This document shows, one piece after another, positions 189 to 30,078 of a DNA stretch of 33,676 bases (position 1 is its first letter; each line of letters starts with the position of its first letter). This DNA is from a virus (lineage: Duplodnaviria > Caudoviricetes). Below the pieces are notes generated by a model that saw only the letters and a list, made by a program, of their open reading frames with translations, was not told where the DNA came from and did no database searches. The translations under genes were made by a program, and so were the position numbers. Location of the stretch: the IMG/VR virus record IMGVR_UViG_3300021446_000034, positions 1 to 33,676 of that record; one strand, given 5' to 3'.

Positions 189-1457
189 CTACCAATCCAG
201 AGCAGATCCGCCCATACTTTCCTCATTTTCTTCCCAATTACCACTCTTCCAGTCCTCATACTCGTCTTGAGAGAGATTCAATGCTTTCAGTGCCTTACCC
301 TCAGCTCTTGCACTCATTGCTACCTCCATCCGCTCGGATTGATCCAGAGCTTGAACCAGATCAAGGACTACCTTTTTAAAGTAGGTGAAATCGCCACCGA
401 TTCCCCAAGATCCTTCCTCAATGTTTGAAAGTGCCTTGTATAGTTCTGCCTCAGCACTTCCGTCTTCTACGTGTGTTTGTTTTCGTCGGAAATGAGATGG
501 ATACGATTTGTCAATGTAGTTGCCATAGGGTTCAGAAATACGACTCTCTCCCACCATTTCCAAAAGTGCAGTTGCATATTTCCAGTACCGATAATCGTTG
601 TCCGGACCAGCAAATCCCAAAAACTCATCAGCACTGGACATGATTTCGTATGCCACTGTTACCTCTACTCCCCGTAACTGTTTGTCCAGTTCGGAAAGGT
701 TGTTCCGCCAATTTTCATCCAACCAGTGAATGAACTCTTCCGGTTTGATTCCATTACCGATCTCCGCATTACCTTCTCCTTTCAGCTGTTGGTCAACAGC
801 GTCCCATTCACTCTGTTCCCACTCCCGTTGATCGAAGTCCACAGAGTCACTATCACGTTCCGAAAACCGTTGGAGATCGTTTATTGCTGATCGGAGGTCA
901 GGACGTTCCGACAATCGCTCCAAATCCCTTGGTGAGAGGTTTATGTCTTCCTTTTTCACTATCTCTTTTAGTTTTGCCTTTCGTGACCGTTTACCGAGTT
1001 TGAAGTCATGAGTGGTACAGGTTTGTTTGACCTTCCTCGGAACGCTGTACTTGTCATTCGCTGTTCCAATAACCGGACACTTGCCCATCTTTAGAGCCTT
1101 CACTAACGGTGTGAGGTTTGTCCGACCCGGTATGCTGTCGATTTCATCCAACAGAACCAACTGACGGTTTGCATATGGATTACTCGTGAGAGTTGATGCG
1201 AGTTCACGAATGTCTTCAGTTGTCCGTTTATCGCTTGCATTTACTTGGTTGAGTGTCCAACCCATCTTTTCTCGAACGACAAAGGCAGTTGTCGTTTTTC
1301 CCGTACCCGGAGAACCTATGAGTAATTGGGGTTTATCGCCCGGAGTCCAATGTTCAGCCCAATTTTCAATAGCACGAAGTGCAGTGTTATTACCTTGAAT
1401 TTCGTCAAACGATTTGGGACGGTACTTAGACACCCAGTGTTCGTCACCCATTGTCAT
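189..1457 (-). CDS. rfcL: Replication factor C large subunit (clamp loader)
   Basis: WVSKYRPKSFDEIQGN box, Walker A GSPGTGKTT, NASDKRT, Walker B LLDEID, DLRSAINDLQ and a large-subunit-type C-terminal region (YRYWKYA). Confidence 0.9.
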   Translation of the reverse strand: MTMGDEHWVSKYRPKSFDEIQGNNTALRAIENWAEHWTPGDKPQLLIGSPGTGKTTTAFVVREKMGWTLNQVNASDKRTTEDIRELASTLTSNPYANRQLVLLDEIDSIPGRTNLTPLVKALKMGKCPVIGTANDKYSVPRKVKQTCTTHDFKLGKRSRKAKLKEIVKKEDINLSPRDLERLSERPDLRSAINDLQRFSERDSDSVDFDQREWEQSEWDAVDQQLKGEGNAEIGNGIKPEEFIHWLDENWRNNLSELDKQLRGVEVTVAYEIMSSADEFLGFAGPDNDYRYWKYATALLEMVGESRISEPYGNYIDKSYPSHFRRKQTHVEDGSAEAELYKALSNIEEGSWGIGGDFTYFKKVVLDLVQALDQSERMEVAMSARAEGKALKALNLSQDEYEDWKSGNWEENEESMGGSALDW

Positions 1458-1851
1458 TCGCTTCCTCTAAATCTTTGATTATTTGTTCTACATCCACGTC
1501 AAATGCAGATTCATCAATTCTCTCCATCACAAACTGTGTATATTTGCCTCTTTTCTCTCCGCTATACTCCGCTTGGATATTTTGTTGTCCCTCAAGCACA
1601 CCCTCAATGGCGTCTAAACGGATTTCTATTTCCTCTAACTGCTCGTCAGTCTGGATGTTTATCAACCTTCTACGGATTTCGTCTGCATAAGTCTCTACTT
1701 CCTTTTTGGCTGCTTCGGGATGGACGTTCGTCTTTTTCATTTCTTTTATTACTTTTTCCTCAACCACTTGCTCCAAATGAGAACTTGAGATAGAATCTTC
1801 GGTAACATACTCCGCTAACTCCTCTACTACATCTGCATCAGAACATGACAT
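1444..1851 (-). CDS. Hypothetical acidic protein carrying the shared NVxTDEE module
   Basis: 135 aa acidic ORF overlapping the rfcL start; contains LINIQTDEQLEEIEIRLDAI. Confidence 0.75.
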   Translation of the reverse strand: MSCSDADVVEELAEYVTEDSISSSHLEQVVEEKVIKEMKKTNVHPEAAKKEVETYADEIRRRLINIQTDEQLEEIEIRLDAIEGVLEGQQNIQAEYSGEKRGKYTQFVMERIDESAFDVDVEQIIKDLEEANDNG

Positions 1852-1883
1852 AAGTAGATGTTGTTATTGGGTAAGCATTCGTA

Positions 1884-2345
1884 CTACCAAGTTATAGCGG
1901 AACTGCTTTCTGCCGCATACATATTGGTTATTGCGTCTTCCAAACGCAACATCTGATCTATATTTCCACCCGTCTTGGCGAACGGACGAGCTATTCTATA
2001 GTCCGACAAATGATTTTCCAGCGGATCTGTGTAATCTCTCCCCGCCAAGAACACAAGACTCTCCGTTTGTCTTCCCCTTATTGAAGAAACAACATCGTCA
2101 GTCCACCTCTTCATCTGTTGGTTGTGATAATTCGTAATTGCGACATCGTAATATTCTATCTTCTCATCGGGTTCTACAACACCATGTTTTGCACTAAGGA
2201 TGCACCACTCATCGGCTATTTTTCGCGCAAAATTTTTCTTTAAAGTGAAATAGTCCGAAGTATAACGGTCTTTGGCCTTTATCTTCTTGTACCGTTGTTC
2301 CCTCTTCTCGCTACCACACCCAACAAGTGCAAGAGTCATCACCAA
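1884..2345 (-). CDS. DUF6884-like protein (neighbour of the TGT/DpdA-like gene)
   Basis: Pattern ALVGCGSEK...AKDRYTSDYF...WCILSAKHGVVEPDEKIEYYD...FLAGRDY is typical of this family. The true start may be the ATG two codons downstream. Confidence 0.7.
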   Translation of the reverse strand: MVMTLALVGCGSEKREQRYKKIKAKDRYTSDYFTLKKNFARKIADEWCILSAKHGVVEPDEKIEYYDVAITNYHNQQMKRWTDDVVSSIRGRQTESLVFLAGRDYTDPLENHLSDYRIARPFAKTGGNIDQMLRLEDAITNMYAAESSSAITW

Positions 2346-3109
2346 CTCATACCCCCGTTTTCCGATATTGGTTCGTAATCGTAATTCGGAGACAACACGA
2401 AGTTCGCTACCATCAACATGAGTAACGCCCCATGACTCCTTACCGCAGACGATTTTTGTCCATTTGGTACGTCAAATTCAAATTGACTTAGACTCTCATC
2501 ATATATACTGTTATTCTTGATAGCCACTGATGGAGTAGAAGAGTCTATGCTATCAAGAAGATTGGGGGTTCTTTGAACAGCATCTACAAGGTCCTCAGTC
2601 ACACCAACACCGAATCCATGCAACATCTTAGATGGTCCTACTGTTTCTCTTGTTGCCTTTACTGCCTCTATCTTTTTTTTGTTATCCCAGTCTTTCACAC
2701 CACCAACAGCATAGTACGAATAGCCTTTGAGATCTTCGTAGTGTTCGTCATGAGGAGGCTGGAGGGGGATAATCGGCTTTGCATAACAATCTGATTCCTT
2801 ATATAAAGAAAAGAACTCCTCTACTGATTCAGTAGTCCGATCTCGGTCATGCATATAATCTTTAGGAACCACATAGGATGCCCGCATTTCTTCAGCCTTC
2901 TCTATGATTTCAGCATTGGTGATGTCTTTGCCAATTCCTGAATCAAGAATGTATTGAAAACACGTTTCACGAGAACGCCCCTCAGCCGCACCCGGACTCT
3001 GAAGTTTATAGGGATACCAAAATTGCTCTATTCCGCCCGACGCAGCACTATACACATCTACATACGACTCGCTGATGACACTCAACCGGTTTTCAAACTC
3101 TTTGAGCAT
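2339..3109 (-). CDS. TGT-fold transglycosylase, probable DpdA-like DNA 7-deazaguanine inserting enzyme
   Basis: TGT-like motifs in order: ILDSG, VPKDY, IPLQ, AVGG, LHGFG, DSIDSST. It is short (256 aa) with no recognisable Zn-binding C-terminus, and queE lies about 2 kb away. Confidence 0.7.
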   Translation of the reverse strand: MLKEFENRLSVISESYVDVYSAASGGIEQFWYPYKLQSPGAAEGRSRETCFQYILDSGIGKDITNAEIIEKAEEMRASYVVPKDYMHDRDRTTESVEEFFSLYKESDCYAKPIIPLQPPHDEHYEDLKGYSYYAVGGVKDWDNKKKIEAVKATRETVGPSKMLHGFGVGVTEDLVDAVQRTPNLLDSIDSSTPSVAIKNNSIYDESLSQFEFDVPNGQKSSAVRSHGALLMLMVANFVLSPNYDYEPISENGGMSW

Positions 3110-3114
3110 ACTAC

Positions 3115-3390
3115 TTACAAATCTTCAGGCCATTCAAGATAGTTAACCGAACACACGTTCTCAATTCGGATGTTTTTGATAACGGGAACGTTTTCTTTGG
3201 TGAGAGCGAGTCGCAAACACTCCATACCCCCAAGAAAATCGTCTTCCACCATCTCCATTACTCCTACAAGAGACATCGTTTTGTTTCTCTGTTCGTAAAA
3301 CACCTTTGCGTAACGGAGACTGCGATCATCAACCATTTCCTCGTACTTGTTCCATACACCAATCCATTCCTCATGGTCTCTTTCAGTCAT
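3115..3390 (-). CDS. Hypothetical protein
   Basis: 91 aa ORF tightly packed in the minus-strand gene run. Confidence 0.6.
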   Translation of the reverse strand: MTERDHEEWIGVWNKYEEMVDDRSLRYAKVFYEQRNKTMSLVGVMEMVEDDFLGGMECLRLALTKENVPVIKNIRIENVCSVNYLEWPEDL

Positions 3391-3616
3391 TTGGAGTCTC
3401 TTTCGGTTTGGTTTTTGCCTCTAACCACTCCTCATCTGCTCTCTTTTCCCATTCTTCATCCACAAACGTAGCAGAGCAGATATGACACGCTTCATAACGC
3501 GGATTTTTGTCCATTTCTATTCGCGTCTCACAACGCGGACACTGTACTGTCTTATCAAACTCAGACACCAACACTCTCTCAGTTGCGTCAAGAACGTGTT
3601 CTCTCTGTTCTTCCAT
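3383..3616 (-). CDS. Small zinc-ribbon protein
   Basis: CPRC...CHIC. Confidence 0.7.
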   Translation of the reverse strand: MEEQREHVLDATERVLVSEFDKTVQCPRCETRIEMDKNPRYEACHICSATFVDEEWEKRADEEWLEAKTKPKETPND

Positions 3617-3617
3617 C

Positions 3618-3959
3618 CTAGATCATATCATTAATATCGTCAATCTCTTCTTCCAACTCTTCTATATCTTCTTCTGTCATGACATTCTTCAATTCCTCTT
3701 TTAGAGACAGTATCCGATTGCAGACATCCTGCATGGTTGGTTCGGAGTCCGGTAGGCTCTCATTTCCATTCCAAAACGTCATTAGAACAACTCCACATTC
3801 GGGACACCTCATCTGACACCGTTCCTCTCCCGTTGTGAGGTACTGAGCCTGTTCCAATTCCACCGACTCAACGCTTTTTTCGTCTTCACAAGACCTACAT
3901 TTGATTGATGTCTGGGGATCAGCAGAGGGGTAGTCAACATTGAAACCCATTGTCACCAA
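3618..3959 (-). CDS. Zinc-ribbon protein with C-terminal NVxTDEE module
   Basis: CRSC...CPECG, then LKNVMTEEDIEELEEEIDDI. The likely start is the ATG of MGFNVD. Confidence 0.75.
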   Translation of the reverse strand: MVTMGFNVDYPSADPQTSIKCRSCEDEKSVESVELEQAQYLTTGEERCQMRCPECGVVLMTFWNGNESLPDSEPTMQDVCNRILSLKEELKNVMTEEDIEELEEEIDDINDMI

Positions 3960-4156
3960 CTATCCGCCTCACTCTCTTCTATCTCTACTGTTCTCACATC
4001 TACTTTTTTCATCTCCATTGTGAACGTGGTTGAGCAGTTGTCGCATACGACTGATGCGTGTCTGTCACCCACTTTACGCAGTCGTATGTTTTTGAGGGAA
4101 GGAGTAGAACGTTCTCTCAGCGCCTTGTTCCCACACTCCGGACATTCCTGTTCCAT
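3953..4156 (-). CDS. Small CPxCG zinc-ribbon protein
   Basis: CPECG...CDNC. Confidence 0.7.
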   Translation of the reverse strand: MEQECPECGNKALRERSTPSLKNIRLRKVGDRHASVVCDNCSTTFTMEMKKVDVRTVEIEESEADSW

Positions 4157-4161
4157 ACTGA

Positions 4162-5667
4162 TTAATCGCTGAATGGGTCCGATGGTCCACTACTTCCGTC
4201 CGATGAGAAGGGGTCACTTCCATCATCAGTTGACTCAAACGCAGAACTACTCCTCTTTCCCGTTCGCAGCTCACCAAAGGAGTAATTCACGAGGTCCAAA
4301 ATCGGTTCCATCGGATCTTTCATGTGTTTCTCTATGTGCTTCTGATAGTCAATTTCAAAACCATCAGGAACCCCATCCTCGCTCCACTCTACTGCTATTT
4401 CCTCCGTATTTGGGACATCCGGTGGACTGTCTTTGATGAAAACGACGAAAGGATTGTCTCCATCACCCCAGTCGTATCCAAGATACTCATTTGAATACAT
4501 ACAGGCCCTCGGAACAGGACGATTAGGGTAATCATGTGGGTCCTTGTTGAGAACTCCCGGTATTGCCATCTCCTGAATGGGTCTTTCATCCTCAACAACT
4601 CCATTAACGAACTGATCGGTGTACTCGCTGATTTCCTCAAACCCACTACCGGACAGTATGTGCTGAATAACTCCCTCCTGAAAATCACTCGTTATTTCCG
4701 GAGAAGAGGACCGGACAGCCTCATATCCGACAATATCTGTATCATCCACATAACTACCTTCTTTCCAGATGATGTTTCCTGCATATCGCTTCTTGCTTCC
4801 GCTCTGCAAAAACCTCCGATATAGCTTCTCACTTTCCCACAAGAAACATTGACGATCCGTACCGTGGAGCTTTCTGTCTTTCAAATACGGATGTTCGCCG
4901 GGAACACCAATCGCATCAGCAACTTTATCCATCTCTTGGTTGATGGACTCTTCCAGATCTTCTCCCATCGCAACAACCTCCTCCGCACTAAGATCCTCAC
5001 CACCTGAACCCAACTGAATGAAAGCTGAGTCCGTATCCGAATAAATCACCTCATGTCCTAACCGCCGAGCTACCTCCATTCCTTTCCAAGCGACATACCT
5101 TGAAAGAGCAGTAATAGCATCTCCAAATGCGTCCGTCGAGAGTCGAAAATACTGGTTATTAGCACACCCAAAGTGAGAGTTCATAAGAACCTTTACACTT
5201 CTTTGTTGGTTATCGTAGGTGTCGTATTCTGGTTGGTCCGGCGAAAACTGGTTTCGCTTGCGTTTGTAGTAACTCCGATCCTCAAACAAATCTCCAAGGT
5301 ACTTTGGGACAATTCCTTCAGTAGAAAGGTCTACACCGATTGCTTCAGGCAAACTCCAAGTGAGGTCTTCCTCAGTGATTTTGCTACCGGATGCGTGTTT
5401 ATCATTAAGAGGAATGTCAGGAATGATGATGTCCACCCTTTCTGGATCATCAGTAAGCGTTTCCTCGGAGATATTGCCCGTCAACATCGCGGATGGATAC
5501 AGAGATTTTAGGTCAAAAACACAAACCCAGTCTTTGATACCCGAAGACGGATAAAAGACCATTCCACCCGTTGCCGGTTCCATTTCTTCTTCTGTGGTGG
5601 TCGGAAGGATCTCCTCAAACGACCTCTTGTTCAACAAGTACCCCTCCACCATTTGCATCTCGGACAT
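4162..5667 (-). CDS. polB: Family B DNA polymerase, polymerase (C-terminal) half
   Basis: Motif A DLKSLYPSAM, motif B KVLMNSHFG, motif C YSDTDS, KKRYAG, GYEAVRS. Confidence 0.93.
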   Translation of the reverse strand: MSEMQMVEGYLLNKRSFEEILPTTTEEEMEPATGGMVFYPSSGIKDWVCVFDLKSLYPSAMLTGNISEETLTDDPERVDIIIPDIPLNDKHASGSKITEEDLTWSLPEAIGVDLSTEGIVPKYLGDLFEDRSYYKRKRNQFSPDQPEYDTYDNQQRSVKVLMNSHFGCANNQYFRLSTDAFGDAITALSRYVAWKGMEVARRLGHEVIYSDTDSAFIQLGSGGEDLSAEEVVAMGEDLEESINQEMDKVADAIGVPGEHPYLKDRKLHGTDRQCFLWESEKLYRRFLQSGSKKRYAGNIIWKEGSYVDDTDIVGYEAVRSSSPEITSDFQEGVIQHILSGSGFEEISEYTDQFVNGVVEDERPIQEMAIPGVLNKDPHDYPNRPVPRACMYSNEYLGYDWGDGDNPFVVFIKDSPPDVPNTEEIAVEWSEDGVPDGFEIDYQKHIEKHMKDPMEPILDLVNYSFGELRTGKRSSSAFESTDDGSDPFSSDGSSGPSDPFSD

Positions 5668-5668
5668 A

Positions 5669-6844
5669 CTACTGAGTATCCGTTATTTTCACACCGCACA
5701 AATCCGCAAGACTATAGAAAAACTCGTGAATGCCGTGTTTTTTGTCCAGTCCAGTAAGGAGCTGAACGTCTACTAGATTGTAGGCCATCAATTTTGACCG
5801 TTCTTCTTCGTACTGGTCCATGATAGATCCTCCCTCAACCTTTGACGAATCAAGTTCCTCACTGCTCACATAATCAAGAGACTTTGACCGCCATTCTCCA
5901 TACGACATTCGGTTAGTGAACGCATCCATCATGTCAAACGACGGAAGACCCGGTACTGCGTCTTCATCTCTCCAAGGCTTTACCATACCCAACTGCGACA
6001 AGTCACTAGAAGAAACCGTAAACACCGCCTTTTTTCTATTCATTCGATTTATGAGATACGGCCAGTCGAAGTCGGTAAAGTTCCAGCCAGATGCAATGTC
6101 CGGACGTTTGTTCTTTACTTCATTAATAAAAGCGCCAAAGAGTTCGGATTCGGACTCACACTGTCGCAAACGAATGTCACACTGAGTATAAAACTTCTCA
6201 TCGTCATGACCCCCCCAGTGGTTTTCTAAATGCTCACGGACCTCTTTTGGGTCAATCTGTTCCTCCTCGTCCAACGCAATACAGAGATACTGATTCTGGA
6301 ACGAGTCGTATGTGGTAATCATCAATACTTTACCCGGAGATTTTTCGACATAATCATCCCAGTTATCAGTGTTCTCTGGAGGCTCCGTTTCAATATCACA
6401 AAGCATGATCCTTGGTACGATCCCATCCCCATCCAGATCGTCCAAATCGGTTTCTACCTCCTCAATATCGCACCTACTCTTCAACTCGGGAATCTTCACA
6501 TACCCACTTAGTCCATAATCCACCGAAACGCGACGCTCATACGGAACATCTGCCTCATATGTGGCGTTGAAAGAATCCCGTATATCACCTACATCTCCCG
6601 GAACACGAGTCACTACTTTACGGAGTGGTTGTCCGTCGTATCCCTCATACTCCTCCTCAACGTACTCCACTTCGTTACAAGAGGGAACAGTTGCAGATTC
6701 AGGAACGAAGAAATACGGCTCCGTTCCCGTCACATGAACGTTGTACCTACCCCCATCCAATCCACGAGCGGTCAACTGGACAATGGGAGAAGTCTCTTTC
6801 GTCATGTAGTTTATATCCGTAACTCGCGCTGTTATTTTCTGCAT
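5669..6844 (-). CDS. polB: Family B DNA polymerase, N-terminal and 3'-5' exonuclease half
   Basis: YEADVPY, ExoI DIETE, ExoII GWNFTDFDWPYL, SLDYV, ExoIII YNLVDV. It stops 1 nt before the ATG of the polymerase half. Confidence 0.9.
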   Translation of the reverse strand: MQKITARVTDINYMTKETSPIVQLTARGLDGGRYNVHVTGTEPYFFVPESATVPSCNEVEYVEEEYEGYDGQPLRKVVTRVPGDVGDIRDSFNATYEADVPYERRVSVDYGLSGYVKIPELKSRCDIEEVETDLDDLDGDGIVPRIMLCDIETEPPENTDNWDDYVEKSPGKVLMITTYDSFQNQYLCIALDEEEQIDPKEVREHLENHWGGHDDEKFYTQCDIRLRQCESESELFGAFINEVKNKRPDIASGWNFTDFDWPYLINRMNRKKAVFTVSSSDLSQLGMVKPWRDEDAVPGLPSFDMMDAFTNRMSYGEWRSKSLDYVSSEELDSSKVEGGSIMDQYEEERSKLMAYNLVDVQLLTGLDKKHGIHEFFYSLADLCGVKITDTQ

Positions 6845-6901
6845 GAAAGTGAATTAGTGATTTGCTTTCTAAAGTCGCAGTCTGCGTTCTGAGCGGTTCT
6901 G

Positions 6902-6933
6902 TTCAAATATGATGTTGAGGTACTTGTCTTCAA
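6902..6933 (-). promoter_or_regulatory. Bipartite motif copy 1 (TTGAAGACAAGTAC-N12-TTTGAA) upstream of polB
   Basis: Same TAC-N12-TTTGAA spacing as the copies at 18798-18829 and 29235-29266. Confidence 0.45.
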
Positions 6934-6975
6934 TTCAAACAGCATGAGCGGTCGTTCACAGACGATATGAACGTA

Positions 6976-7455
6976 CTAAGAATTATCCTCGTCATCGCTT
7001 TCGTCTGATGCGCTCTGTTCTTTTATCTTATCCATAGTCCAAGTTCCTTCCGTCTTATTTATGCTCAAGCTTCTTGTCTTTCCGATGAAAGTCTCATCAT
7101 TGTCTCCCGTGTCTTTTTTATCGCCTCCAGTGCCCCACCTAGGCCCAGAAATATCAGAAGTATCAAATCTTATATCTTTATTTCCCCACTCAGAATCCTC
7201 CCAATCAATGTCCTCAATACTATCTATCTCCGGGGTCTTCAATTGCTCTTCAAGAGCGTCAAGAAGATCTTCAATCTCATCCAACTCCTCATCGGACATC
7301 ACGTTCTTCAGTTTGGTACGGAGTTGGTTTATTTTCTCTACCTCGGAATTGCCCGAGTCCATCATCATATGCGTCTCAGCTAGCTCGCTCGGAGAAGACG
7401 AGTAATGTTCTGTTTTCTTACCGTCATGAGGATCGCTCGTGATATTAAGACTCAT
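6976..7455 (-). CDS. Hypothetical acidic protein with NVxTDEE module
   Basis: LKNVMSDEELDEIEDLLDAL. Confidence 0.75.
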   Translation of the reverse strand: MSLNITSDPHDGKKTEHYSSSPSELAETHMMMDSGNSEVEKINQLRTKLKNVMSDEELDEIEDLLDALEEQLKTPEIDSIEDIDWEDSEWGNKDIRFDTSDISGPRWGTGGDKKDTGDNDETFIGKTRSLSINKTEGTWTMDKIKEQSASDESDDEDNS

Positions 7456-8023
7456 CTTTTATCTCTTTGCGGATCTTTTCAACCGATTTAACTCTACTTT
7501 TGTCTGGCCTTGCCCACTGTGTAGAAAGATTCGTGGTTTTAACACGCTGAGACGGAATGTGATGGTTTACGGAACTTGTAGTAGCTGCATTGTCGTCCAA
7601 ACCACGATGAAATTGAGTGTCGTCCAACTTTTTGGTCTTCATTGACTCCAATGCATCATTCACTTGCTTGACCTCTTCATCGGTCATCACGTTCTTAATG
7701 ATTGACTGAATATACTCAATCAATCTGTTTGTGTGAGGTTTACTTAGATACTTCTCCAATTCATCATAATCCATTTCGTCTTCGTCAACAGGATGGTGCG
7801 TATGTTGGTCTACCCTCTCACTCCGTATTTTATATCGCATCTCCTCTGCTTCTCTTTCTTTGAAAGCACCTTTGTCAAAATGTTGCTTTTGAAAAGCAGC
7901 GGTAGGAGGTAAATTCATCGCATTTCTACCACCATCGTCAGATTCGGTATCCTTTGTACTGTTCCGTTCATCGTTTCCTTCGGGAGGAAACATAGTATTC
8001 TTGACTGAGTTTATGAGATTCAT
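7445..8023 (-). CDS. Hypothetical protein with NVxTDEE module
   Basis: IKNVMTDEEVKQVNDALESM. Confidence 0.75.
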   Translation of the reverse strand: MNLINSVKNTMFPPEGNDERNSTKDTESDDGGRNAMNLPPTAAFQKQHFDKGAFKEREAEEMRYKIRSERVDQHTHHPVDEDEMDYDELEKYLSKPHTNRLIEYIQSIIKNVMTDEEVKQVNDALESMKTKKLDDTQFHRGLDDNAATTSSVNHHIPSQRVKTTNLSTQWARPDKSRVKSVEKIRKEIKDES

Positions 8024-8026
8024 CGT

Positions 8027-8812
8027 TCAAAACTTAATATAGTCTATACCACCCGCTCCGACTGGACTTGCATGACAGTGCGACTCGTAAGCGCACCAAA
8101 AACAATCTCCGTCTGCTGGATCAGGTGGGTACTCATCGTTCTTTTTTCCCTCTACTACATCTCTTGCATACCCCAACATTTCGTCCCAGATTTCATCACT
8201 CGTCTCTAACTTCCGTTGTTTTTCTTCTTTTAGATAGACAAAACGGATTCCTTCGGGCGGTTTCCCATACTCTTTCTCAAAGCACTTCATGTAAACAGCA
8301 CCCTGAATCTTCTCCTCAACAGGCGTATCGTCACGAATACGACCAGTTTTCCAGTCCCATATCTCACCCCCTGTCGCAACGTCCATGATACCCCTGAACC
8401 GAGAGTCAATGTCCGGACGAGACAAACCGAACTCACTGTCCACCTCTACACCCACGATCTCTGGTTCCATCGCAGAAAGGAAACGAGCTGCTACCTCTAA
8501 ATACTCGATTCCATCATCAAACATATCATCCGGTGGTTGCTCGTCTCCGTTTCTATACTCTCGTTTCAAGTCTCTCTCAAGCCTATCCTCATACAACGGT
8601 GAGTCGTCTTTCAGAACGCGCTCTATTGCCTCATGGACTGCTGAACCAAGAGACAAGTACCCCTTAGAAGCCTTTGTGGGAGTCTTATCGGATAAATAAC
8701 TGAAACGGTACTGTTCCGGACACGTTCGGTACTTCTTTATTGCACTTGCTGATAGAGGATAAGACCCATCATCTGCCAATGCCGGCTCGTTCCGCCACTC
8801 TCTGTCAGTCAA
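8027..8812 (-). CDS. Cas4-like/RecB-family PD-(D/E)XK exonuclease with Fe-S cysteines
   Basis: LSASAIKKYRTCP, GSAVHEAIE, RGIMDV, DWKTG, QGAVY, CFWCAYESHC. Confidence 0.88.
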   Translation of the reverse strand: MTDREWRNEPALADDGSYPLSASAIKKYRTCPEQYRFSYLSDKTPTKASKGYLSLGSAVHEAIERVLKDDSPLYEDRLERDLKREYRNGDEQPPDDMFDDGIEYLEVAARFLSAMEPEIVGVEVDSEFGLSRPDIDSRFRGIMDVATGGEIWDWKTGRIRDDTPVEEKIQGAVYMKCFEKEYGKPPEGIRFVYLKEEKQRKLETSDEIWDEMLGYARDVVEGKKNDEYPPDPADGDCFWCAYESHCHASPVGAGGIDYIKF

Positions 8813-9246
8813 CGTTCGTCCTCCGGCAATACTTCTATTGTGACCGTTTCACCCTCTTCATCAGTATCTTTTGGGATCGGAAAACCGGTTACTACGCCCC
8901 CCTGAAGAACGTTTTTCGATATTGACTTTTTGCCGCCCGGCCATTCGGATTCTATATCCAACCCAACATCACCCTCTACAAAATCCGTATCTTCATACAT
9001 TTCGTGGGTCAAACGAATGGAGTCTAGATGGTTCTGTATCTCTTTGACTTCCTTATCAGTCATGACATTAGCCAAATTGCCCTCTATGCTGTCTACTCTA
9101 TCAGTAACGGGCGGTTCTTGGGCCGACTCAACCAATTTAGAGATTTCTGCAAGGGAACTTTCTATTTTTGGAGGATCAGGAACAGAAATGTTTTTGAGTG
9201 AGTCCAAAGCCTTGGAAACGTCTTTGAATGACTCTTTAGTGCCCAT
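8809..9246 (-). CDS. Hypothetical protein with NVxTDEE module
   Basis: LANVMTDKEVKEIQNHLDSI. Confidence 0.75.
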   Translation of the reverse strand: MGTKESFKDVSKALDSLKNISVPDPPKIESSLAEISKLVESAQEPPVTDRVDSIEGNLANVMTDKEVKEIQNHLDSIRLTHEMYEDTDFVEGDVGLDIESEWPGGKKSISKNVLQGGVVTGFPIPKDTDEEGETVTIEVLPEDER

Positions 9247-10249
9247 CGTCTTCCCACTGTTCCTGTTCGTAATTGTCCACGTTCAGATGTCTGGCAACGT
9301 GGATACTCGAAAGGAGAGAATGAAACTGTACGTTCGGATTTGCCCCATTCAGAATCCTCCAGTCCGCCTTTCCGATTTTTGAAATTGCCTTAGCACGAAT
9401 CGGAGCCGGCCAATTTTTGTCTTTTACAACTCTCAGCATGGAGTCACACAACGTTTGAGAGTCCACACCGGATTTCAATACCTTGTCAGTCTTGTCCATT
9501 GCTTCCCCATAGTCACCTGCAATAGCCATATCAACCAATTCCTCAATGAGATCGTCGTCAACGACACTTACGAGAGCATCAATGGACTGTGCTGATACCG
9601 TTCCATCCGCTTCGGCTGCCTGTAGTGTATTAACAGCCTTCCGTGCATCCCCACGAGAATGTTCCACCAAATCCCAAAGGTGGTTCTCGTCTACGTCCAG
9701 ACTTTCTCCTTCTACCACCCGATCAAGGAATTGTTTTACTTCACTATCATCCAGTTTACCGAAATTAAAAACCGCGCAACGGGAGAGGAGGGGGTCAATA
9801 ATTTGGTTTTGATAATTACACGTCATTACGAATTTTGTCTGGTCTGAGAACTTTTCCATCACCCGGCGTAGAGCAGGTTGCGCAGAATCCGTGAGTGAGT
9901 CCATCTCGTCAAGGTGTATATACTGGTGGTTTGCATTAGACCCTACTGCCGTACTTTGTCGAGCGAACGACTTGACTTTATTACGAATGACATCAATACC
10001 TCTCTCATCACTCGCGTTGAGACTCATGATGTTGTTTTTCCATCCCTCTCCATATTTGTCTTTAGCAAAGGCCAAAATAACACTCGTCTTCCCAGTCCCC
10101 GCTGGACCGGAGAACAACATATGAGGTGTAGACGGATCATCAGTCCACTCTTTGAGTTGCTTCACTGCTTCCTCTTGACCGATAACATCATCAAGCGACT
10201 GAGGACGGTACTTCTCAACGTACATCTGGTCGTTTACGCTATCCATCAA
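9236..10249 (-). CDS. rfcS: Replication factor C small subunit
   Basis: EKYRPQSLDDVIGQ, GPAGTGKT, LNASDERGIDVIR, LDEMD, AQPALRRVME, SRC motif, GDARKAVNTLQ. Confidence 0.95.
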   Translation of the reverse strand: MMDSVNDQMYVEKYRPQSLDDVIGQEEAVKQLKEWTDDPSTPHMLFSGPAGTGKTSVILAFAKDKYGEGWKNNIMSLNASDERGIDVIRNKVKSFARQSTAVGSNANHQYIHLDEMDSLTDSAQPALRRVMEKFSDQTKFVMTCNYQNQIIDPLLSRCAVFNFGKLDDSEVKQFLDRVVEGESLDVDENHLWDLVEHSRGDARKAVNTLQAAEADGTVSAQSIDALVSVVDDDLIEELVDMAIAGDYGEAMDKTDKVLKSGVDSQTLCDSMLRVVKDKNWPAPIRAKAISKIGKADWRILNGANPNVQFHSLLSSIHVARHLNVDNYEQEQWEDDGH

Positions 10250-10280
10250 AGAACCTCGTTATCAATATTTTTCATATGAT

Positions 10281-10577
10281 TTAATCTCCTCCGAGTAACC
10301 ATTGTGTTCCCGCAGCGATAGCCATACCCTCAACACCGAACACCACCAACGAGAGAGTAAAGAACATCCACTCTCCACTTGAAAATAGCGTCCCTATTCT
10401 CCATAGTGTCATCGCAACGATCCCAACAACCGAAGCAACTACCATAGCAAATCCGGTAGTGATGACCACCAGCTTCGGTGTAATCAACCGAAGGAACGCC
10501 GTCAGTCTGTTTCTCTGGAGTAGTTCAATCGCACGATCCGCCGTTTTTTCTATCTTCTGTTCGGATTTACTCTTCAT
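10281..10577 (-). CDS. Small membrane protein (2 predicted TM segments)
   Basis: Hydrophobic runs LVVITTGFAMVVASVVGIVAMTLW and WMFFTLSLVVFGVEGMAIAAG. Confidence 0.7.
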   Translation of the reverse strand: MKSKSEQKIEKTADRAIELLQRNRLTAFLRLITPKLVVITTGFAMVVASVVGIVAMTLWRIGTLFSSGEWMFFTLSLVVFGVEGMAIAAGTQWLLGGD

Positions 10578-10601
10578 CTTCTACTTGAATAATTGACTCA
10601 A

Positions 10602-10651
10602 ACTACTTCGTTATCCTCAGATTCTCCGCCAAAAAGCGAGGAGGATGTCAA
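10602..10651 (+). mobile_element. Degenerate IS200/IS605-family (tnpB-type) right-end remnant
   Basis: GATTCTCCGCC-AAAAA-GCGAGGAGGATGTCAA resembles, from recollection, haloarchaeal IS1341/IS605 right ends (hairpin followed by GGAGGATGTCAA, ending in TCAA). No tnpA or tnpB is present. Confidence 0.4.
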
Positions 10652-10697
10652 TCTTTGGAACGGTACATTGATAAAGTTATGGTTTGTAGATGGTACT

Positions 10698-10832
10698 ATG
10701 GCAACGACGGTCCAAATTGAGATTGAAGACGACAACCAGTACGAGCGGTTGCGGGCAATCAAGCGGCACAACGGACTAACGTGGAAAGGAATGTTGCTCC
10801 ACTCGGCGGAGACCTTGGATACCCCGGACTGA
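10698..10832 (+). CDS. 44-aa ribbon-helix-helix-like small protein; the only convincing plus-strand gene
   Basis: MATTVQIEIEDDNQYERLRAIKRHNGLTWKGMLLHSAETLDTPD shows a strand-helix-helix pattern. A TATA-like TTGATAAAG lies about 25 nt upstream of the ATG, consistent with a leaderless transcript. Confidence 0.65.
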   Translation: MATTVQIEIEDDNQYERLRAIKRHNGLTWKGMLLHSAETLDTPD

Positions 10833-10866
10833 TCGGCTTCAACGGTTTTCGTCCCTGTTGCCGGAT

Positions 10867-11293: not shown

Positions 11294-11318
11294 ATTGACA
11301 ACAGCCTGTCCCCAAAGG

Positions 11319-12416: not shown

Positions 12417-12419
12417 ATT

Positions 12420-13595: not shown

Positions 13596-13600
13596 ACACA

Positions 13601-20382: not shown

Positions 20383-23300
20383 TCATTGACACGGTGAAAA
20401 ACCACATGATATACATAGACTACAACCTTCTCTCTGTTCCATCACACCCTCTCCACATTCCGGACAAGGATTTTCACTCTCAGAATCAACCTCTACCGAT
20501 TTTTCGTCTTCTTCATCACTACTTCCGTCAGTAGTTAGAACCTGTTTACTGCGAGTTCCCTGTCTATAGTAGGTCACGCCTTTTCCATCATTTTCGTAAA
20601 TGTATTCAAACGCCTCCTTGGCGTCTTTAAGTGTTGACTCATGTGATGCGTTTACACTCTTGGAGATAGCCGATCCTACTCCTTCTTGTAGCGCACACTG
20701 AACAGAGGCGTGTTCCAGACCGGAAAGTTCACCAGCAGTAACGAACAGCTCACCGATTCGTTTCGGTACTGCTGAAAGACCCTCAACCCCATCAAAATCG
20801 TTGGTCGCCATCTGCTCTTTTGCCTCGTCTTTTACCTCCTCCACATCGATGTCGTTGGCCTCCAACACACGAAGGAAATAATCGTCAAATTCCACTAACA
20901 TTTCATCACCCTGAACGTCGTCGCTGACGTTTTTGTGATAAGCTACATTATAGATGGGTTCACATCCTCCTGTAGTATTCCCAACCATTCCGGTGGTCCC
21001 AGTCGGGGCTATTGTAGTCGTATCGTAGTTTCTGATGGGGAACCCCTCTTGCCAGTCTATTGCCTTCTCCCCCGTCTGTCTCTCAAACCACTCGCTATGC
21101 TTACGAGGATAGGCATACTTGGAATCGGGCCATGCAGCAAACGACTGACGTTCAACGGAGAGTTCCTTACTTGCTTGTTTTGACTCTTGGTTGATATGGA
21201 CCATCACCTGCCGAGCAACCTCATTACCGACCTCACTGCCATACTCCACGCCGAGTTGGATATACATTTGAGCAAGCCCCATGATCCCAAGGCCGATCTT
21301 CCGTGTCCGACCAACCACCTCGGAGATGTCTTCTGTTGGGAAGTCATTCATGGTTATGACATTATCAAGGAACCTCGTTCCAATATGGATACGATTATCC
21401 ATGTCTTCCCAGTCAATAGCCTCCTCAAGGAAAGACTCAACTCGTTCCTCTAGTTCTCCATTACCATCATACTCATCCCAAAGTGTACGATTGTCGTCTA
21501 CTACGGTAGATAGGTTGATATGCCCCAAATTACAAGCGTCATTTTCCATGAGAGGCTGCTCGCCACAGTTTCCTGTAACACAATGACTCAATCGGAACGT
21601 ATGTGATGGATGATGTACGGTAATATCCCATACATCTTCTCCGCCCTCTCGTTTTGTAACGCTTTCAATAGTCGAATGGCGAGAATTGACGTTTCTCCGT
21701 TGTGGCTCCGGAAGTTCATCTAACTCTTGTTGCTTTCTTTCATGAGTAATGTCGAATTTCGCGTTGAATTGATCTGAGGGAATAGTTGAAAGGTTGATAA
21801 TCTTGCTTTCATACTCTTCAGAACCCAACGTATCAGTCCTGTCTCTAATGCTATGTTTTAGGCCATAGAAACCAAGGAGATCGGAGAAATCGCTAACTAA
21901 CTCATCATGAGCTGAGGTTATTCCAGATCGGTTATCCTGATTCGACACATGACCATCAGACGAAAACAAACCATCAATGAAACCACGCCGGAAACTCTCC
22001 GAGCATTCTTCCCAGAATAGATCTGGCAACCCATCTTCCTTCTTACAAACATTGAAAGAATCCATGTAGTCATTGATTTCTTTGTTCGCTGCATCAAACT
22101 GTGCCCAATCCTCTCCGCCGTCATTTGTAACAGATGGAGTATAGCGAAAGCCCGTTATGTTTTCGACTTTATCAAGGATTTTCTCCATAATACCATTCTC
22201 TTGATTCTCTTCACTAAAACCAAAACCAAACTGGCGAGGACTGGCTTTATCGCTACGAATTGTCACCCACCCGTCGCCGTACAACCAACCTATTAAGAAC
22301 CCGTCTTCACGATCTCCTCTGTTACCACACTTAAGACTGTCAAGTTGTGTGAGCGGTATTCTGTCTCCTTCTTCAAGTTCATCAGTCTCTGTTTTTTCAT
22401 AACCATTGTACTCTACTTGGCCGCTTTCGTGGCTCCAAACAGGATCATCGTTAAGAACTGGCCACTCATGCTCCTCAGTAGCTCGGTATGTTTTCTCATT
22501 TTCAATCTCAACTTCATATACTGTCTCGCCTTCACCTGAAAGGAAACACTCACCTTTTGCCCACTCTCCTTCCAAAGTAGGAACTTGAATTTCTTGACCC
22601 TCCAATTCTTCAATTGGGTAAATGCCATCGCTTGTTAGAACTTTGGTCTCAGCTCCCAAGGAAGGGTTCGTAGCTTGGACCTCATATTGTCCACCCCTAC
22701 CAGTGGGAGAAGACCGTGTTGGGAAAGCATGGTCACGATTGATCTGGTCGAGATAGACAACCCCCGGTTCTCCGTTTTCGTATGCACCTTCCACAATGTC
22801 TTCCCACAACTCTTCAGCCGGAATTGACAGTGGTTCTCCTACCTCTACATACTTCCCGAGACCATGCCATTCGTACATCTCTTTAGTCTGTTCGGTTGCA
22901 ATGTGTGGATCGCCTGTCCGTGGATTGATGAAGGTGTGTTCTTCTCCCTCTTTTACTGCCTCCATAAAATCATCCGTCATTCCCACGGAGATATTGAAAT
23001 TAGAGAGATGTCCTTCAACAGCGTTGCGAAGGTGCTTTGGCACTTTTCCATCCTCATCAATCAACTCTCGGGCCTCCTCAAGTGCCTCACCGAAAGAAGT
23101 ATAGGTAGGATCGTCCGGATCGTTCAGTTTGAGAGTCCGTGCCAGAGACACGTCCTTGTTCTTTGCATGAATGAACTGAATTACGTCCGGATGAGTAACA
23201 CGCATGACACCCATCTGGGCACCCCTCCTCATCCCCGCCGCCGCAACAGTGCTACACATCTGGTCAAATGTACGCATGAAAGACAACGGACCAGAGGCCA

Positions 23301-23937
23301 CTCCTCCCGTACTCCCTACTGTATCGCCGTATGGTCGAAGTTGAGAGAAGGGATAGCCAACCCCACCCCCGCTCTGAAACGTGAGAGCCGCCTGTTTTGC
23401 AGTATCATGAATTTCACCCATGTCATCGGAAGGATGCAAAACAAAGCAGGCCGACAGCATTTGCAAGTCGTCTCCTGCGTTCACCAAGGTAGGAGTATTG
23501 GGAACGAACTGAAGATTCTCCATCAGGTTACGGAACTCTTCTGCCGTAGTCCGTACCTTCTCTTCAATCTCCGTAGGAAGGTCGCTTACAAATCGTTCAT
23601 AGTCTGCATAAACGATGTTGTCTTCCGTGAGAAGCATCCGAGTGTAGTTGTCAAACTCCTCATCGATTATCTCCTCACGCTTTGGATGATCCCTTTTCAC
23701 ATGACGTGGAGAGAACGCCAAATCAGCATCAGCATGAACTGCTTCTGCCAATGCAACGTTCTGTGCTACTCTCTCAAACAATTCCTCCTGTTCTTCTACC
23801 AATTCACCATCCGCGTTTTTCTTGAGATACCTCGCAGGAAGGATGTTGTGGTACGCATTGGATGTAAGAGTTTCTTCCAACGGCTCATCAACTGTTGCTG
23901 GCTTCGTCGGCAAAACGACGTTTTCGTTATCAGACAT
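20383..23937 (-). CDS. nrdJ: Class II (adenosylcobalamin) ribonucleotide reductase containing an intein
   Basis: FVPNTPTLVNAG, LSACFV, GGGVG, RRGAQM, GEPG, ATNP|CGEQ, CNLGHINL, RKIGLGIMG, TIAPTGT, AISKSVN, KGVTYYR and a C-terminal Zn ribbon. Confidence 0.95.
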   Translation of the reverse strand: MSDNENVVLPTKPATVDEPLEETLTSNAYHNILPARYLKKNADGELVEEQEELFERVAQNVALAEAVHADADLAFSPRHVKRDHPKREEIIDEEFDNYTRMLLTEDNIVYADYERFVSDLPTEIEEKVRTTAEEFRNLMENLQFVPNTPTLVNAGDDLQMLSACFVLHPSDDMGEIHDTAKQAALTFQSGGGVGYPFSQLRPYGDTVGSTGGVASGPLSFMRTFDQMCSTVAAAGMRRGAQMGVMRVTHPDVIQFIHAKNKDVSLARTLKLNDPDDPTYTSFGEALEEARELIDEDGKVPKHLRNAVEGHLSNFNISVGMTDDFMEAVKEGEEHTFINPRTGDPHIATEQTKEMYEWHGLGKYVEVGEPLSIPAEELWEDIVEGAYENGEPGVVYLDQINRDHAFPTRSSPTGRGGQYEVQATNPSLGAETKVLTSDGIYPIEELEGQEIQVPTLEGEWAKGECFLSGEGETVYEVEIENEKTYRATEEHEWPVLNDDPVWSHESGQVEYNGYEKTETDELEEGDRIPLTQLDSLKCGNRGDREDGFLIGWLYGDGWVTIRSDKASPRQFGFGFSEENQENGIMEKILDKVENITGFRYTPSVTNDGGEDWAQFDAANKEINDYMDSFNVCKKEDGLPDLFWEECSESFRRGFIDGLFSSDGHVSNQDNRSGITSAHDELVSDFSDLLGFYGLKHSIRDRTDTLGSEEYESKIINLSTIPSDQFNAKFDITHERKQQELDELPEPQRRNVNSRHSTIESVTKREGGEDVWDITVHHPSHTFRLSHCVTGNCGEQPLMENDACNLGHINLSTVVDDNRTLWDEYDGNGELEERVESFLEEAIDWEDMDNRIHIGTRFLDNVITMNDFPTEDISEVVGRTRKIGLGIMGLAQMYIQLGVEYGSEVGNEVARQVMVHINQESKQASKELSVERQSFAAWPDSKYAYPRKHSEWFERQTGEKAIDWQEGFPIRNYDTTTIAPTGTTGMVGNTTGGCEPIYNVAYHKNVSDDVQGDEMLVEFDDYFLRVLEANDIDVEEVKDEAKEQMATNDFDGVEGLSAVPKRIGELFVTAGELSGLEHASVQCALQEGVGSAISKSVNASHESTLKDAKEAFEYIYENDGKGVTYYRQGTRSKQVLTTDGSSDEEDEKSVEVDSESENPCPECGEGVMEQREGCSLCISCGFSPCQ
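21568..22662 (-). mobile_element. 365-aa intein with LAGLIDADG homing endonuclease, inserted before the catalytic Cys (NP|CGEQ)
   Basis: Starts SLGAETKVLT; block B ATEEHEW; LAGLIDADG motifs GFLIGWLYGDG and GFIDGLFSSDG; block F DVWDITV; ends VTGN|C. Confidence 0.92.
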
Positions 23938-28712: not shown

Positions 28713-28715
28713 CAG

Positions 28716-28814: not shown

Positions 28815-28816
28815 TC

Positions 28817-29084: not shown

Positions 29085-29087
29085 TAA

Positions 29088-29162
29088 TAGGCGATAGCGG
29101 ATTTGAACCGCTGGCACTGACGATGTAAGCGTCAGACTCTAACCAGACTGAGTTAATCGCCT
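29088..29162 (-). tRNA. tRNA-Val(TAC), CCA not encoded
   Basis: Full cloverleaf: AGGCGAT / ACTC-AGTCTGGTTA-GAGT / TGACG-CT TAC AT-CGTCA / AGCGG-TTCAAAT-CCGCT / ATCGCCT-A. Confidence 0.93.
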
Positions 29163-29234
29163 ACTGAACTACTTATGTCTCCGCGAGTTGTTCCTCACTC
29201 CTGTTCTAAGGAGCGTGTGTTGGTTCTGAGACAT

Positions 29235-29266
29235 TTCAAAGACAGAGTAGTAGTAAGTATCCTATT
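29235..29266 (-). promoter_or_regulatory. Bipartite motif copy 3 (AATAGGATACTTAC-N12-TTTGAA) upstream of the RNA cluster
   Basis: Matches the copy at 18798-18829. Confidence 0.5.
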
Positions 29267-29309
29267 CATACTGAAACGTCATCACAAACAACTGAGAGCC
29301 TTAGAGAAG

Positions 29310-29717
29310 TTACACTACATTCATCTTCTCCAGCTCTTCTTCCATTTGCCTCTGAAATCTATCTCCTCCCTGTTCTGCCTCTCTAATCAACGAAGTGTAA
29401 GCACTATACTCACCAAAATTCTCTTTATATACCAGCACCTCTGCCCTCTGGATCGTTTCGGGGAGCATACAGAACATCATCCCGAAACTACCCGTAACGG
29501 AAAACGGAATGAGGTACTTGTCGTGTTCTAATTTCCCGTCAATTCCTTGTTCCAATACTGGTTCGTTTATTGGATGGTTGTTGAAGTTCCAGACCACTGT
29601 ATCCTGATACAGATACGGCTGTCTAATTCTCCGTCGGAGAAAAGACTGAACCTCCTCAACAGTCGTCTGGTTGGTCATCCTCAACGAGTCGCTTTTGTAA
29701 TTATTTGTTCTACTCAT
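29310..29717 (-). CDS. Hypothetical protein
   Basis: 135 aa ORF overlapping the upstream stop. Confidence 0.6.
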   Translation of the reverse strand: MSRTNNYKSDSLRMTNQTTVEEVQSFLRRRIRQPYLYQDTVVWNFNNHPINEPVLEQGIDGKLEHDKYLIPFSVTGSFGMMFCMLPETIQRAEVLVYKENFGEYSAYTSLIREAEQGGDRFQRQMEEELEKMNVV

Positions 29718-30078
29718 CGTGAGACATTAAATCATCAATTTGAAAGCGCAATTCGCTCATATTTTCTTCTATTTCTTTGATCTCTTCGTCGGTATTCACA
29801 TTATTGATCTTTTCGTCAATCTCCGACAACGACCGCTTTATATCGTACTTTCTATATTCCAAAGACGGTGGATCAACCCCAGAAGATACCGCATCGTATT
29901 CTCTCTCCGTTAAACTATCAATTATATACGAACCTATAAGTCCACCACATACCCCCCACAAAACAGAAAACGCCAAATTCAGATTAGAGGTCACAACAAG
30001 ATAGCTCCCAACGAGGAATATAAACAAGAAACTAACCATCGCAAAGACATCAAACGATTCCCCAAAACTACTATCCAT
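29710..30078 (-). CDS. Membrane-anchored protein (2 TM) with C-terminal NVxTDEE module
   Basis: VFAMVSFLFIFLVGSYLVV and LAFSVLWGVCGGLIGSYII, then INNVNTDEEIKEIEENMSEL. Confidence 0.75.
   Translation of the reverse strand: MDSSFGESFDVFAMVSFLFIFLVGSYLVVTSNLNLAFSVLWGVCGGLIGSYIIDSLTEREYDAVSSGVDPPSLEYRKYDIKRSLSEIDEKINNVNTDEEIKEIEENMSELRFQIDDLMSHDE

Follow-up and report, generated by a model that had tools for sequence, protein, structure and literature searches.

What partner is served by a short helical hairpin that recurs in eight small proteins of one virus? Small hypothetical genes account for a large share of the genomes of archaeal viruses, mostly as singletons. In this case, one conserved module ties together eight genes of unknown function, which persist as separate paralogs in related records, so that eight unknowns reduce to this single question. 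The genes lie in a 33,676-nucleotide stretch of DNA (the window) that represents about 29% of its genome and is a fragment of an uncultured salt-loving archaeal virus. The original prediction held that their otherwise unrelated products share a candidate docking tag that is conserved at the protein level, attached to different cargos, and not recognizable as a described family.

The virus is a deep relative of the Druskaviridae haloviruses, an assignment based on gene-by-gene identities and one primase tree for a fragment without virion genes. The nearest cultured viruses (HCTV-1, HCTV-5, HCTV-16, and HVTV-1) share its replication gene set in a similar order, with core proteins 32 to 53% identical and RNR 61% identical, and in the primase tree the window falls on a long branch outside six HCTV/HVTV-like primases. 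It differs from these viruses in its GC content (0.42 to 0.49, lower than the 0.57 of Druskaviridae), in its split PolB, and in the presence of the module genes. The Druskaviridae-like replication backbone, encoding the clamp, primase, RFC small subunit, PD-(D/E)XK nuclease, split PolB, and RFC large subunit, occupies positions 189 to 14497 of the minus strand, where seven of the module genes fill variable slots separating the backbone genes. The eighth follows a pair of genes on the same strand (30118 to 33034) that encode a vWA protein (30118 to 32061) and a MoxR/CobS-like AAA+ ATPase (32084 to 33034), neither of which carries the module; both placements are as predicted.

All eight asparagine codons, with the predicted peptides around them, were found on the minus strand (positions 1659, 3686, 7305, 7693, 9069, 10956, 11215, and 29802), marking a module of 34 residues in eight small ORFs. 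The pattern [LIF]xN[VI]x[TS][DE][EK] occurred 8 times in a hand-picked set of 49 minus-strand ORFs totaling 10,605 aa, against about 0.03 occurrences expected (2,000 per-protein shuffles; mean, 0.034; maximum, 2). Because this pattern was composed after the copies had been seen, leave-one-out scoring is the fairer test: held-out copies scored 17 to 32 bits (E values of 9e-6 to 2e-10), and nonmembers reached 4.1 bits at most (E value of 0.11 or worse). A 30-row profile recovered exactly 8 copies from the contig, all in small ORFs. The codon usage scores of the eight frames (0.12 to 0.21) were within or near the range of 14 core training genes (0.11 to 0.28), and those of other frames were all negative. 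The module is not a DNA repeat, since third codon positions diverge (over 22 codons, pairs of copies agree at 13 to 19 second positions and at only 3 to 11 third positions) and a repeat search found 30-nucleotide echoes of only 70 to 73% among the copies; no long direct or inverted repeat was found at them. Conservation at the protein level was thus borne out. With the module masked, the eight carriers showed no resemblance to one another at an E value of 0.05, and the copies themselves have a mean mutual identity of 28%. Of 22 residues, adjacent copies have 8 and 5 in common, inside the range of 5 to 9 for all pairs, so neighbors are no closer than distant copies; the module tree was mostly without resolution, with 1 of its 29 branches supported.

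When 1.84 billion proteins were searched with a profile, 30 matched: 7 belong to the window virus, and the other 23 are small acidic proteins that all carry the module with its whole pattern. Since the 23 are known without genome context, we infer only provisionally that they are viral; some of the shorter ones may be cut by contig ends. The window copies are 44 to 74% identical to particular proteins elsewhere, compared with their mean of 28% to each other. Because several outside proteins are counterparts of particular window genes, the paralog set is, by these comparisons, old and has been maintained as distinct paralogs.

The cargos, all encoded on the minus strand, vary as predicted. The 135-aa ORF at 1444 to 1851 (core at 1600 to 1701), which adjoins the RFC large subunit gene, carries the module mid-protein and has a counterpart in P0026 (module 59% and N-terminal cargo 47% identical). 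The ORF at 3618 to 3959 (112 to 113 aa; core at 3627 to 3728) joins a zinc ribbon-like region with two CxxC pairs to a C-terminal module, and P0015 has the same layout (27% identity over 100 aa; pairwise E value of 3e-6). Between the PD-(D/E)XK nuclease and PolB exonuclease genes, the acidic 159-aa ORF at 6976 to 7455 (core at 7246 to 7347) has its counterpart in P0011, with an alignment limited to the module region (65% identity in the module), and a 192-aa ORF is found at 7445 to 8023 (core at 7634 to 7735). P0020 is a full-length counterpart (30% identity over 141 aa; E value of 1e-14; module, 53%) of the 145-aa ORF at 8809 to 9246 (core at 9010 to 9111), which is flanked by the RFC small subunit and nuclease genes. 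The 53-aa ORF at 10867 to 11028 (core at 10897 to 10998) is a nearly bare, divergent copy (TDKKA) nearest to P0009 and P0021 (41%); its exact sequence was not found in the protein collection. Directly after the primase gene, the ORF at 11000 to 11329 (core at 11156 to 11257; nearest relative, P0008 at 44%) has its longest frame from 11434, but the GTG at 11329 is the more likely start, giving a probable product of 109 aa (as in P0007), since a 144-aa protein would require an overlap of 116 nucleotides with the primase gene. The 122-aa ORF at 29710 to 30078 (core at 29743 to 29844), directly after the vWA gene, combines a hydrophobic N-terminal half that is likely membrane spanning (Kyte-Doolittle window of 2.55) with a C-terminal module; its counterpart is P0022 (module 74% and cargo 49% identical).

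Masked BLAST aligned the cargo in three pairs, and in each of them identity is higher in the module than in the cargo (74 versus 49%, 59 versus 47%, and 52 versus 34%). Four counterparts are each found on a single 19,646-bp contig and, given this equal length, probably come from one sister genome; P0027 and P0030 belong to contigs of 89 kb and 28 kb, respectively. Nearly bare modules recur in P0016 (45 aa), P0030 (59 aa), P0021 (60 aa), and P0009 (61 aa), that is, in 4 of the 23 outside proteins, as well as in the 53-aa window ORF. This recurrence suggests that the hairpin itself is the working part and that the label "tag" may undersell it; the bare versions would also make easy baits.

The prediction that the module belongs to no described family held for Pfam, PHROGs, NCBIfam, PADLOC, and the PDB. 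Pfam (whole ORFs and 30 cores), PHROGs, NCBIfam, and PADLOC gave scattered coiled-coil matches below cutoff, with no family common to more than 3 of the 30 members and no match of the module to an enzyme family. The best PDB sequence profile was a designed coil (E value of 0.009), Foldseek found nothing at an E value of 0.001 in the PDB and viral structures, and the ESM Atlas gave no usable match. In open-licence PMC and bioRxiv full text, supplements aside, no paper contained the motif spellings, and none in these collections dealt with the combination of UVR, phage, and adaptor. Word-index protein searches found no new member, which is weak evidence because only about 8,000 candidates were scored in each. 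A translated-profile scan of IMG/VR yielded 114 pattern stretches, none confirmed, and DNA pattern scans yielded 46 and 8 stretches in IMG/VR and at least 100 in metagenomes, none of those listed exceeding 21 bits. GTDB genomes had no match to a strict pattern that catches only about half of the known copies by hand count, and tblastn against phages and plasmids gave nothing meaningful.

The acidic coils of halophiles did not match equally well. Hits at an E value of 0.05 in 8 of 401 Halobacteria genomes were partial, lay in unrelated proteins, and reached 20.6 bits at most, compared with 36.6 to 58 bits for the training copies; at an E value of 0.01, host searches gave hits in none of the 14 genomes taken from one family and in 1 of 401 drawn from the whole phylum, all partial and within the same limit. 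No mimicked module copy in a host protein was found in the host genomes searched. The idea that the copies are acidic coiled coils that look alike by chance, or that a DNA repeat is being translated in frame, might draw on the D/E-rich host proteome and on weak partial matches in haloarchaea and elsewhere, but it is refuted by the leave-one-out scores far above background, the profile search of proteins, and the Halobacteria search, and we consider it wildly improbable; third codon positions are scrambled, the whole pattern recurs in the 23 further proteins, and a six-frame translation of loci from haloarchaea and haloviruses, 1.47 million residues in all, contains no match to the motif.

Among other viruses, no module copy was found in the four complete cultured Druskaviridae records, where HCTV-16 and HCTV-1 each gave one short partial match (13.2 and 10.5 bits; model positions 18 to 31 and 18 to 25), in the complete 106-kb relative G001, in HGTV-1, HRTV-8, HSTV-2, and PhiF1, or in five IMG/VR fragments. 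Judged by its absence from the four records and G001, the module is most likely accessory. The family is lineage restricted; its known range is narrow, covering one virus fragment plus 23 proteins yet to be placed, and its reach is limited accordingly.

AlphaFold2 predicts an antiparallel two-helix hairpin (pLDDT of 85), with helices at 3 to 22 and 27 to 45 in the model for the 29710 to 30078 ORF. Isoleucine and leucine at heptad spacing (-13, -9, -6, and -2; +7, +10, +14, and +17) are predicted to close the hairpin, and N-V-x-T-D-E-E is predicted to form the turn and helix cap. An assumed resemblance of this cap to those of ribosomal protein uL29 and GvpK was dropped as generic capping. The UVR domain (PF02151), an interaction handle of UvrB, UvrC, and ClpC, is likewise a short antiparallel hairpin reused across different proteins; its loop differs, no Clp-type ATPase was found among 39 window proteins scanned, and PF02151 matched 0 of 30 modules at an E value of 0.1 and 0 of 8 whole ORFs.

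Conservation in the module peaks at noncore positions (N0 in 31 of 32, D+4 in 30 of 32, and E+9 in 26 of 32, with M or N at +2 in 26 of 32 and D+15 in 19 of 32), as counted in proteins that the profile itself selected. These columns bear on whether the module is merely a compact, salt-stable scaffold derived from one small ancestral gene, whose copies have diverged in job and have no common partner. The fold is generic (769 of 48,161 chains at a Z score of 5 or more in VIA-align, none at 8, and a best Z score of 7.5), capping accounts for T-D-E-E, and the paralogs are no more alike than noted above; yet the Asn at 0 and the Met or Asn at +2 seem more specific than capping requires, identity drops sharply beyond the module to cargos that often fail to align, and bare copies recur. 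We regard the scaffold reading as unlikely.

The main rival to a docking hairpin is self-association, in which the hairpins would pair into four-helix bundles and couple their cargos as homo- or hetero-oligomers, with bare copies as dominant-negative caps. The heptad hydrophobics are 97 to 100% conserved at seven columns, a 34-residue hairpin seems small for stability alone, and P0012 holds two copies (its single-sequence fold, with a pLDDT of 45, is unreliable). Against pairing, helix 2 has a mean net charge of -6, the positions flanking the heptad are only partly hydrophobic (38% at -10 and 44% at +13), enzymes and core components within the window carry no fused copy, and neighboring copies are not more alike than distant ones. 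Small helical adaptors are proposed to act by such pairing, and effector-associated domains (EADs) and Death-like adaptors are placed in bacterial MoxR-vWA ternary conflict systems (PMC7159879). They share with the module a small, all-helical, nonenzymatic character and a presence on several proteins of a genome that also encodes MoxR and vWA. The module differs from them in being viral and having two helices only, in 34 residues; in being absent from the MoxR and vWA proteins of the window, although other core components might bear a copy in the roughly 71% of the genome that is unseen; in that its closest pairs are not neighbors, the nearest relatives lying in other records; and in occurring as bare copies and on cargos that are not recognizable effectors. 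No EAD or Death-like Pfam profile matched any of the 30 modules at an E value of 0.1. Self-association is possible but doubtful; mutual pairing, if it occurs, would make the hairpins a viral example of a minimal homotypic adaptor network.

We tentatively favor a docking hairpin for one common partner, probably a host protein. What stands of the original docking-tag proposal is the protein-level hairpin, the varied cargos, and the lack of a known family; the viral hubs that it named (clamp, clamp loader, and MoxR/vWA) are weakened because relatives keep these hubs without the module. HCTV-1, HCTV-5, HVTV-1, and HCTV-16 all retain clamp, primase, and MoxR homologs, with RFC and vWA seen for HCTV-1. 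Since only about 29% of the genome is in hand, a viral partner may lie beyond the window. Small variable genes located among the early genes of viruses frequently have host targets, and ATPases or GTPases are common docking sites for hairpins. The conserved tip and acidic second helix would dock onto the partner, with a putative binding surface made up of the polar residues N, M/N, D, and E. Bare copies would occupy that partner or block it, and through fused copies a membrane anchor, zinc ribbon, or acidic tail would reach it in the replication phase. Against docking, much of the conserved loop (the T-D-E-E cap and V-L staple) would be needed by any stable hairpin, and acidity is general among halophile proteins. 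A host partner would name a route of host takeover or counterdefense in haloarchaea. In a bolder and rather improbable form, the hairpins, eight in less than a third of the genome, would be a plug-in adaptor system whose members all dock on a single machine of the host, which bare copies would jam and fused copies would reroute to membranes or to zinc ribbon or acidic modules. Such a system would parallel, in a virus, the modular adaptor networks known from cellular immunity, and every hairpin would serve as a ready-made inhibitor pointing to an archaeal defense or housekeeping target.

The vWA protein contains DRSGS and, in its N-terminal part, HEVGH, which we take to be a MIDAS and a metallopeptidase motif, respectively. 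The module could be a substrate or recruitment tag serving a machine of the virus, with MoxR/vWA as the likeliest candidate: the tip Asp (D+4) would complete the vWA metal site, and either the ATPase or the N-terminal HExxH region of the vWA protein would receive the tagged proteins. One copy directly follows the vWA gene, and one report proposes that a MoxR-vWA-peptidase pair acts as a chaperone in phage assembly (PMC7824862). We nonetheless think a MoxR/vWA tag improbable: HCTV-1 and G001 have MoxR and vWA homologs without any module, a separate role as CobS/CobT is proposed for the pair in another report (PMC8651126), and 7 of the 8 copies are 19 to 29 kb distant.

None of the eight module proteins, moreover, carries the Trp-ending tail that is seen on the RFC large subunit and methyltransferases. 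Clamp-binding C-terminal tails (PIP box and T4 type) are terminal linear motifs. They resemble the module as one short signal by which unrelated viral proteins reach one hub, and they differ from it in position, as none of the 8 module proteins has W or F as its last residue. Trp-ending ORFs numbered 7 of 49, against 0.73 expected, and to judge by the sequences this separate tail looks like the clamp tag of the virus.

All eight copies of the module (34 residues around N-V-x-T-D-E-E, numbered from Asn as 0) were found where the original prediction had placed them, in minus-strand open reading frames (ORFs) named by coordinate: 1444, 3618, 6976, 7445, 8809, 10867 (53 amino acids), 11000, and 29710. 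A strict motif pattern occurred 8 times in 49 ORFs of the window against a shuffle mean of 0.034, and leave-one-out profiles recovered each held-out copy at 17 to 32 bits, with the best nonmember at 4.1 bits. Codon position 2 agreed at 13 to 19 of 22 sites and position 3 at only 3 to 11 of 22, a combination that indicates selection on the protein, as had been proposed. Codon usage was core-gene-like in 8 of 8 module frames, and most of the ORFs abut or overlap neighboring genes. The cargo differs as predicted: masking the module left no mutual resemblance among the eight proteins at an E value of 0.05.

The pattern in 32 copies, whose column counts run high because the profile itself picked 24 of them, reads I(-6), L(-2), N, V, M/N, T, D, E, E, followed by L/I/V, E/D, E, I, L(+14), D, and I/L(+17). 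AlphaFold2, given a 30-row alignment, predicted helices at 3 to 22 and 27 to 45 (mean pLDDT, 85), in keeping with the proposed helical hairpin, and structure matches of the predicted module were generic antiparallel hairpins. Helix 1 is near neutral (mean net charge, -0.7) and helix 2 strongly acidic (-6.2). The hydrophobic positions, like T-D-E-E, are accounted for by hairpin packing and helix capping; the residues that would instead face a partner are Asn at 0, Met/Asn at +2, and E+9/D+15.

An eight-row profile searched against 1.84 billion representative proteins gave 30 matches at an E value of 0.001, 7 from the window virus and 23 others of 45 to 153 amino acids (21 from Logan, 1 from JGI, and 1 from ENA). 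The full pattern was present in all 23, twice in P0012, and none had an informative name; they are putatively viral, given their acidity (D+E content, 15 to 34%) and the window genes to which they correspond. For P0008, P0011, P0020, and P0026 the contig is in each case a single one of 19,646 bp, and for P0012 and P0025 one of 6,317 bp; the equal sizes suggest that the members of each set share a contig. Module identity between nearest relatives was 44% (ORF 11000 and P0008), 65% (6976 and P0011), 53% (8809 and P0020), and 59% (1444 and P0026), compared with a mean of 28% among the window's own copies. That window copies are closer to outside counterparts than to each other points to paralogs older than the divergence of these genomes and retained since. 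The module was better conserved than the cargo in the three pairs whose cargo aligns (masked BLAST), and the zinc-ribbon and membrane layouts recurred in P0015 and P0022, respectively.

Curated family libraries contained no fit for the module, consistent with the original view that it is not a described family, and a profile comparison gave no match to the UVR domain. Among 401 Halobacteria genomes, only 8 had matches, all partial, at 20.6 bits or less, and in unrelated proteins, so that random acidic coils of halophiles do not match equally well, the alternative the original prediction had raised against itself; a phylum-wide profile search matched 1 of 401 genomes (17.4 bits). NVNTDQEL followed by an acidic helix occurs in a haloarchaeal protein of about 140 amino acids in 3 of the 401 Halobacteria genomes (17 to 18 bits); the first-helix pattern is missing, and the likeness is probably chance. 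Complete records of four cultured Druskaviridae and of the 106-kb halovirus relative G001 had no full copy, nor did HGTV-1, HRTV-8, HSTV-2, or PhiF1; among these viruses, HCTV-1 and HCTV-16 alone gave matches, which were short and partial. Scanning IMG/VR, metagenome, and GTDB collections for the pattern returned chance matches only. A full-text literature search with three spellings of the motif found no paper, and passages of the Druskaviridae description (PMC8651126) do not mention the module; its supplements could bear on the point. The module is a real domain family, apparently undescribed, and its eightfold expansion in one halovirus lineage is unusual. As a putative small helical adaptor, it resembles effector-associated domains as parts of PMC7159879 present them; it differs from them in that neither MoxR nor vWA bears a copy, adjacent copies are not closest relatives, and it lacks a profile match. 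A shared helical handle is of a known kind, but neither this family nor its use by a virus is catalogued in the sources searched.

The window is an entire virus record of 33,676 bp (estimated completeness, 29%) with nearly all genes on the minus strand. Family matches identified RFC large and small subunits, PolB, a PD-(D/E)XK nuclease, a vWA/MoxR pair, two DNA methyltransferases, RadA, Hjc, and an ERCC4 nuclease; primase, clamp, and ribonucleotide reductase were assigned from their resemblance to annotated virus genes. Passages of PMC7544198 note a clamp and clamp loader among halovirus genes. Among cultured viruses, the nearest are the Druskaviridae HCTV-1, HCTV-5, HCTV-16, and HVTV-1 (PolB exonuclease, 44 to 46% identity; primase, 39 to 43%; clamp, 33%), and in a primase tree the window formed a long branch outside them. 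The host is probably a haloarchaeon, because the reductase is 61 to 65% identical to its best 80 genome matches, nearly all labelled Halobacteria, and the sequencing run containing the window DNA is labelled halite metagenome. Contigs from that run agree with this region almost to the letter, an agreement that is not independent, as they may be the source sample. Two further low-GC halovirus relatives (0.39 to 0.40) lack the module: G001, which has MoxR/vWA, and L258, a 39-kb fragment whose replication backbone is the same.

Module genes fill the slots that separate conserved replication genes, positions taken by different small genes in HCTV-1; the eighth directly follows vWA, where a tRNA gene stands in HCTV-1. 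That one copy's adjacency and the conserved Asp are what speak for a substrate tag for MoxR/vWA, which we consider unlikely; the pair is treated as CobS/CobT in parts of PMC8651126, and passages of PMC7824862 propose a chaperone role for phage MoxR-vWA-peptidase pairs. The paralogs have been maintained, some near-bare, and are accessory to the replication backbone: relatives operate it in their absence. The copies may bind one shared partner through a shared surface, and that partner would be a host protein in the reading we tentatively favor, since every viral hub visible here is also present in relatives without the module and since bare copies imply a hairpin acting by itself. Self-association of the hairpins, the main rival, is less probable, and a mere scaffold is as improbable as the MoxR/vWA tag.

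PolB and the RFC large subunit of HCTV-1 and HVTV-1, and an HVTV-1 methyltransferase, have a common four-residue L-x-F/W terminal tail, and [VP]L[DSEG][FW] ends PolB, RFC large, and several small proteins in HCTV-1, HCTV-5, HVTV-1, and a metagenomic relative (loci L002, L247, L253, and L260). In the window, a related Trp tail ends RFC large, both methyltransferases, and three small proteins (C-termini at 189, 1884, 2339, 3953, 12420, and 17437, minus strand), and 7 of 49 ORFs end in W (0.73 expected). This is likely a binding tail for the viral clamp; on the methyltransferases it would tie methylation to replication. None of the eight module proteins carries it. P0028 bears hairpin and Trp-type tail together. 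Clamp binding by the module itself is unlikely, because replication proteins share this separate tail, which differs from the module and is missing from all eight.

Several other features were observed in the window. A VapB-like antitoxin domain (14673-15020, minus; Pfam PF02697, 29.5 bits) had no recognized toxin gene beside it. A TGT-like ORF (weak Pfam match, E value of 0.004) lies beside a DUF6884 ORF (1884-3109, minus), both with the Trp tail, possibly as a DNA base-modification pair. A 79-amino-acid plus-strand ORF (10593-10832) occupies the gap after the 53-amino-acid gene, and read contigs from elsewhere match 10710-10751 and intergenic 29227-29277. PolB is split into exonuclease (5669-6844, minus) and polymerase (4162-5667, minus) ORFs with one base between, compared with a single gene of 908 to 913 amino acids in HCTV-1 and HVTV-1; a read contig, possibly from the source sample, spans the junction without differences. 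The class II ribonucleotide reductase (20383-23937, minus) has 1,184 amino acids versus about 980 in HCTV-1; an insertion beginning near residue 426 resembles, by eye, an intein carrying a homing endonuclease. The vWA protein (30118-32061, minus) has a DxSxS motif and, in its N-terminal part, an HExxH motif also found in G001.
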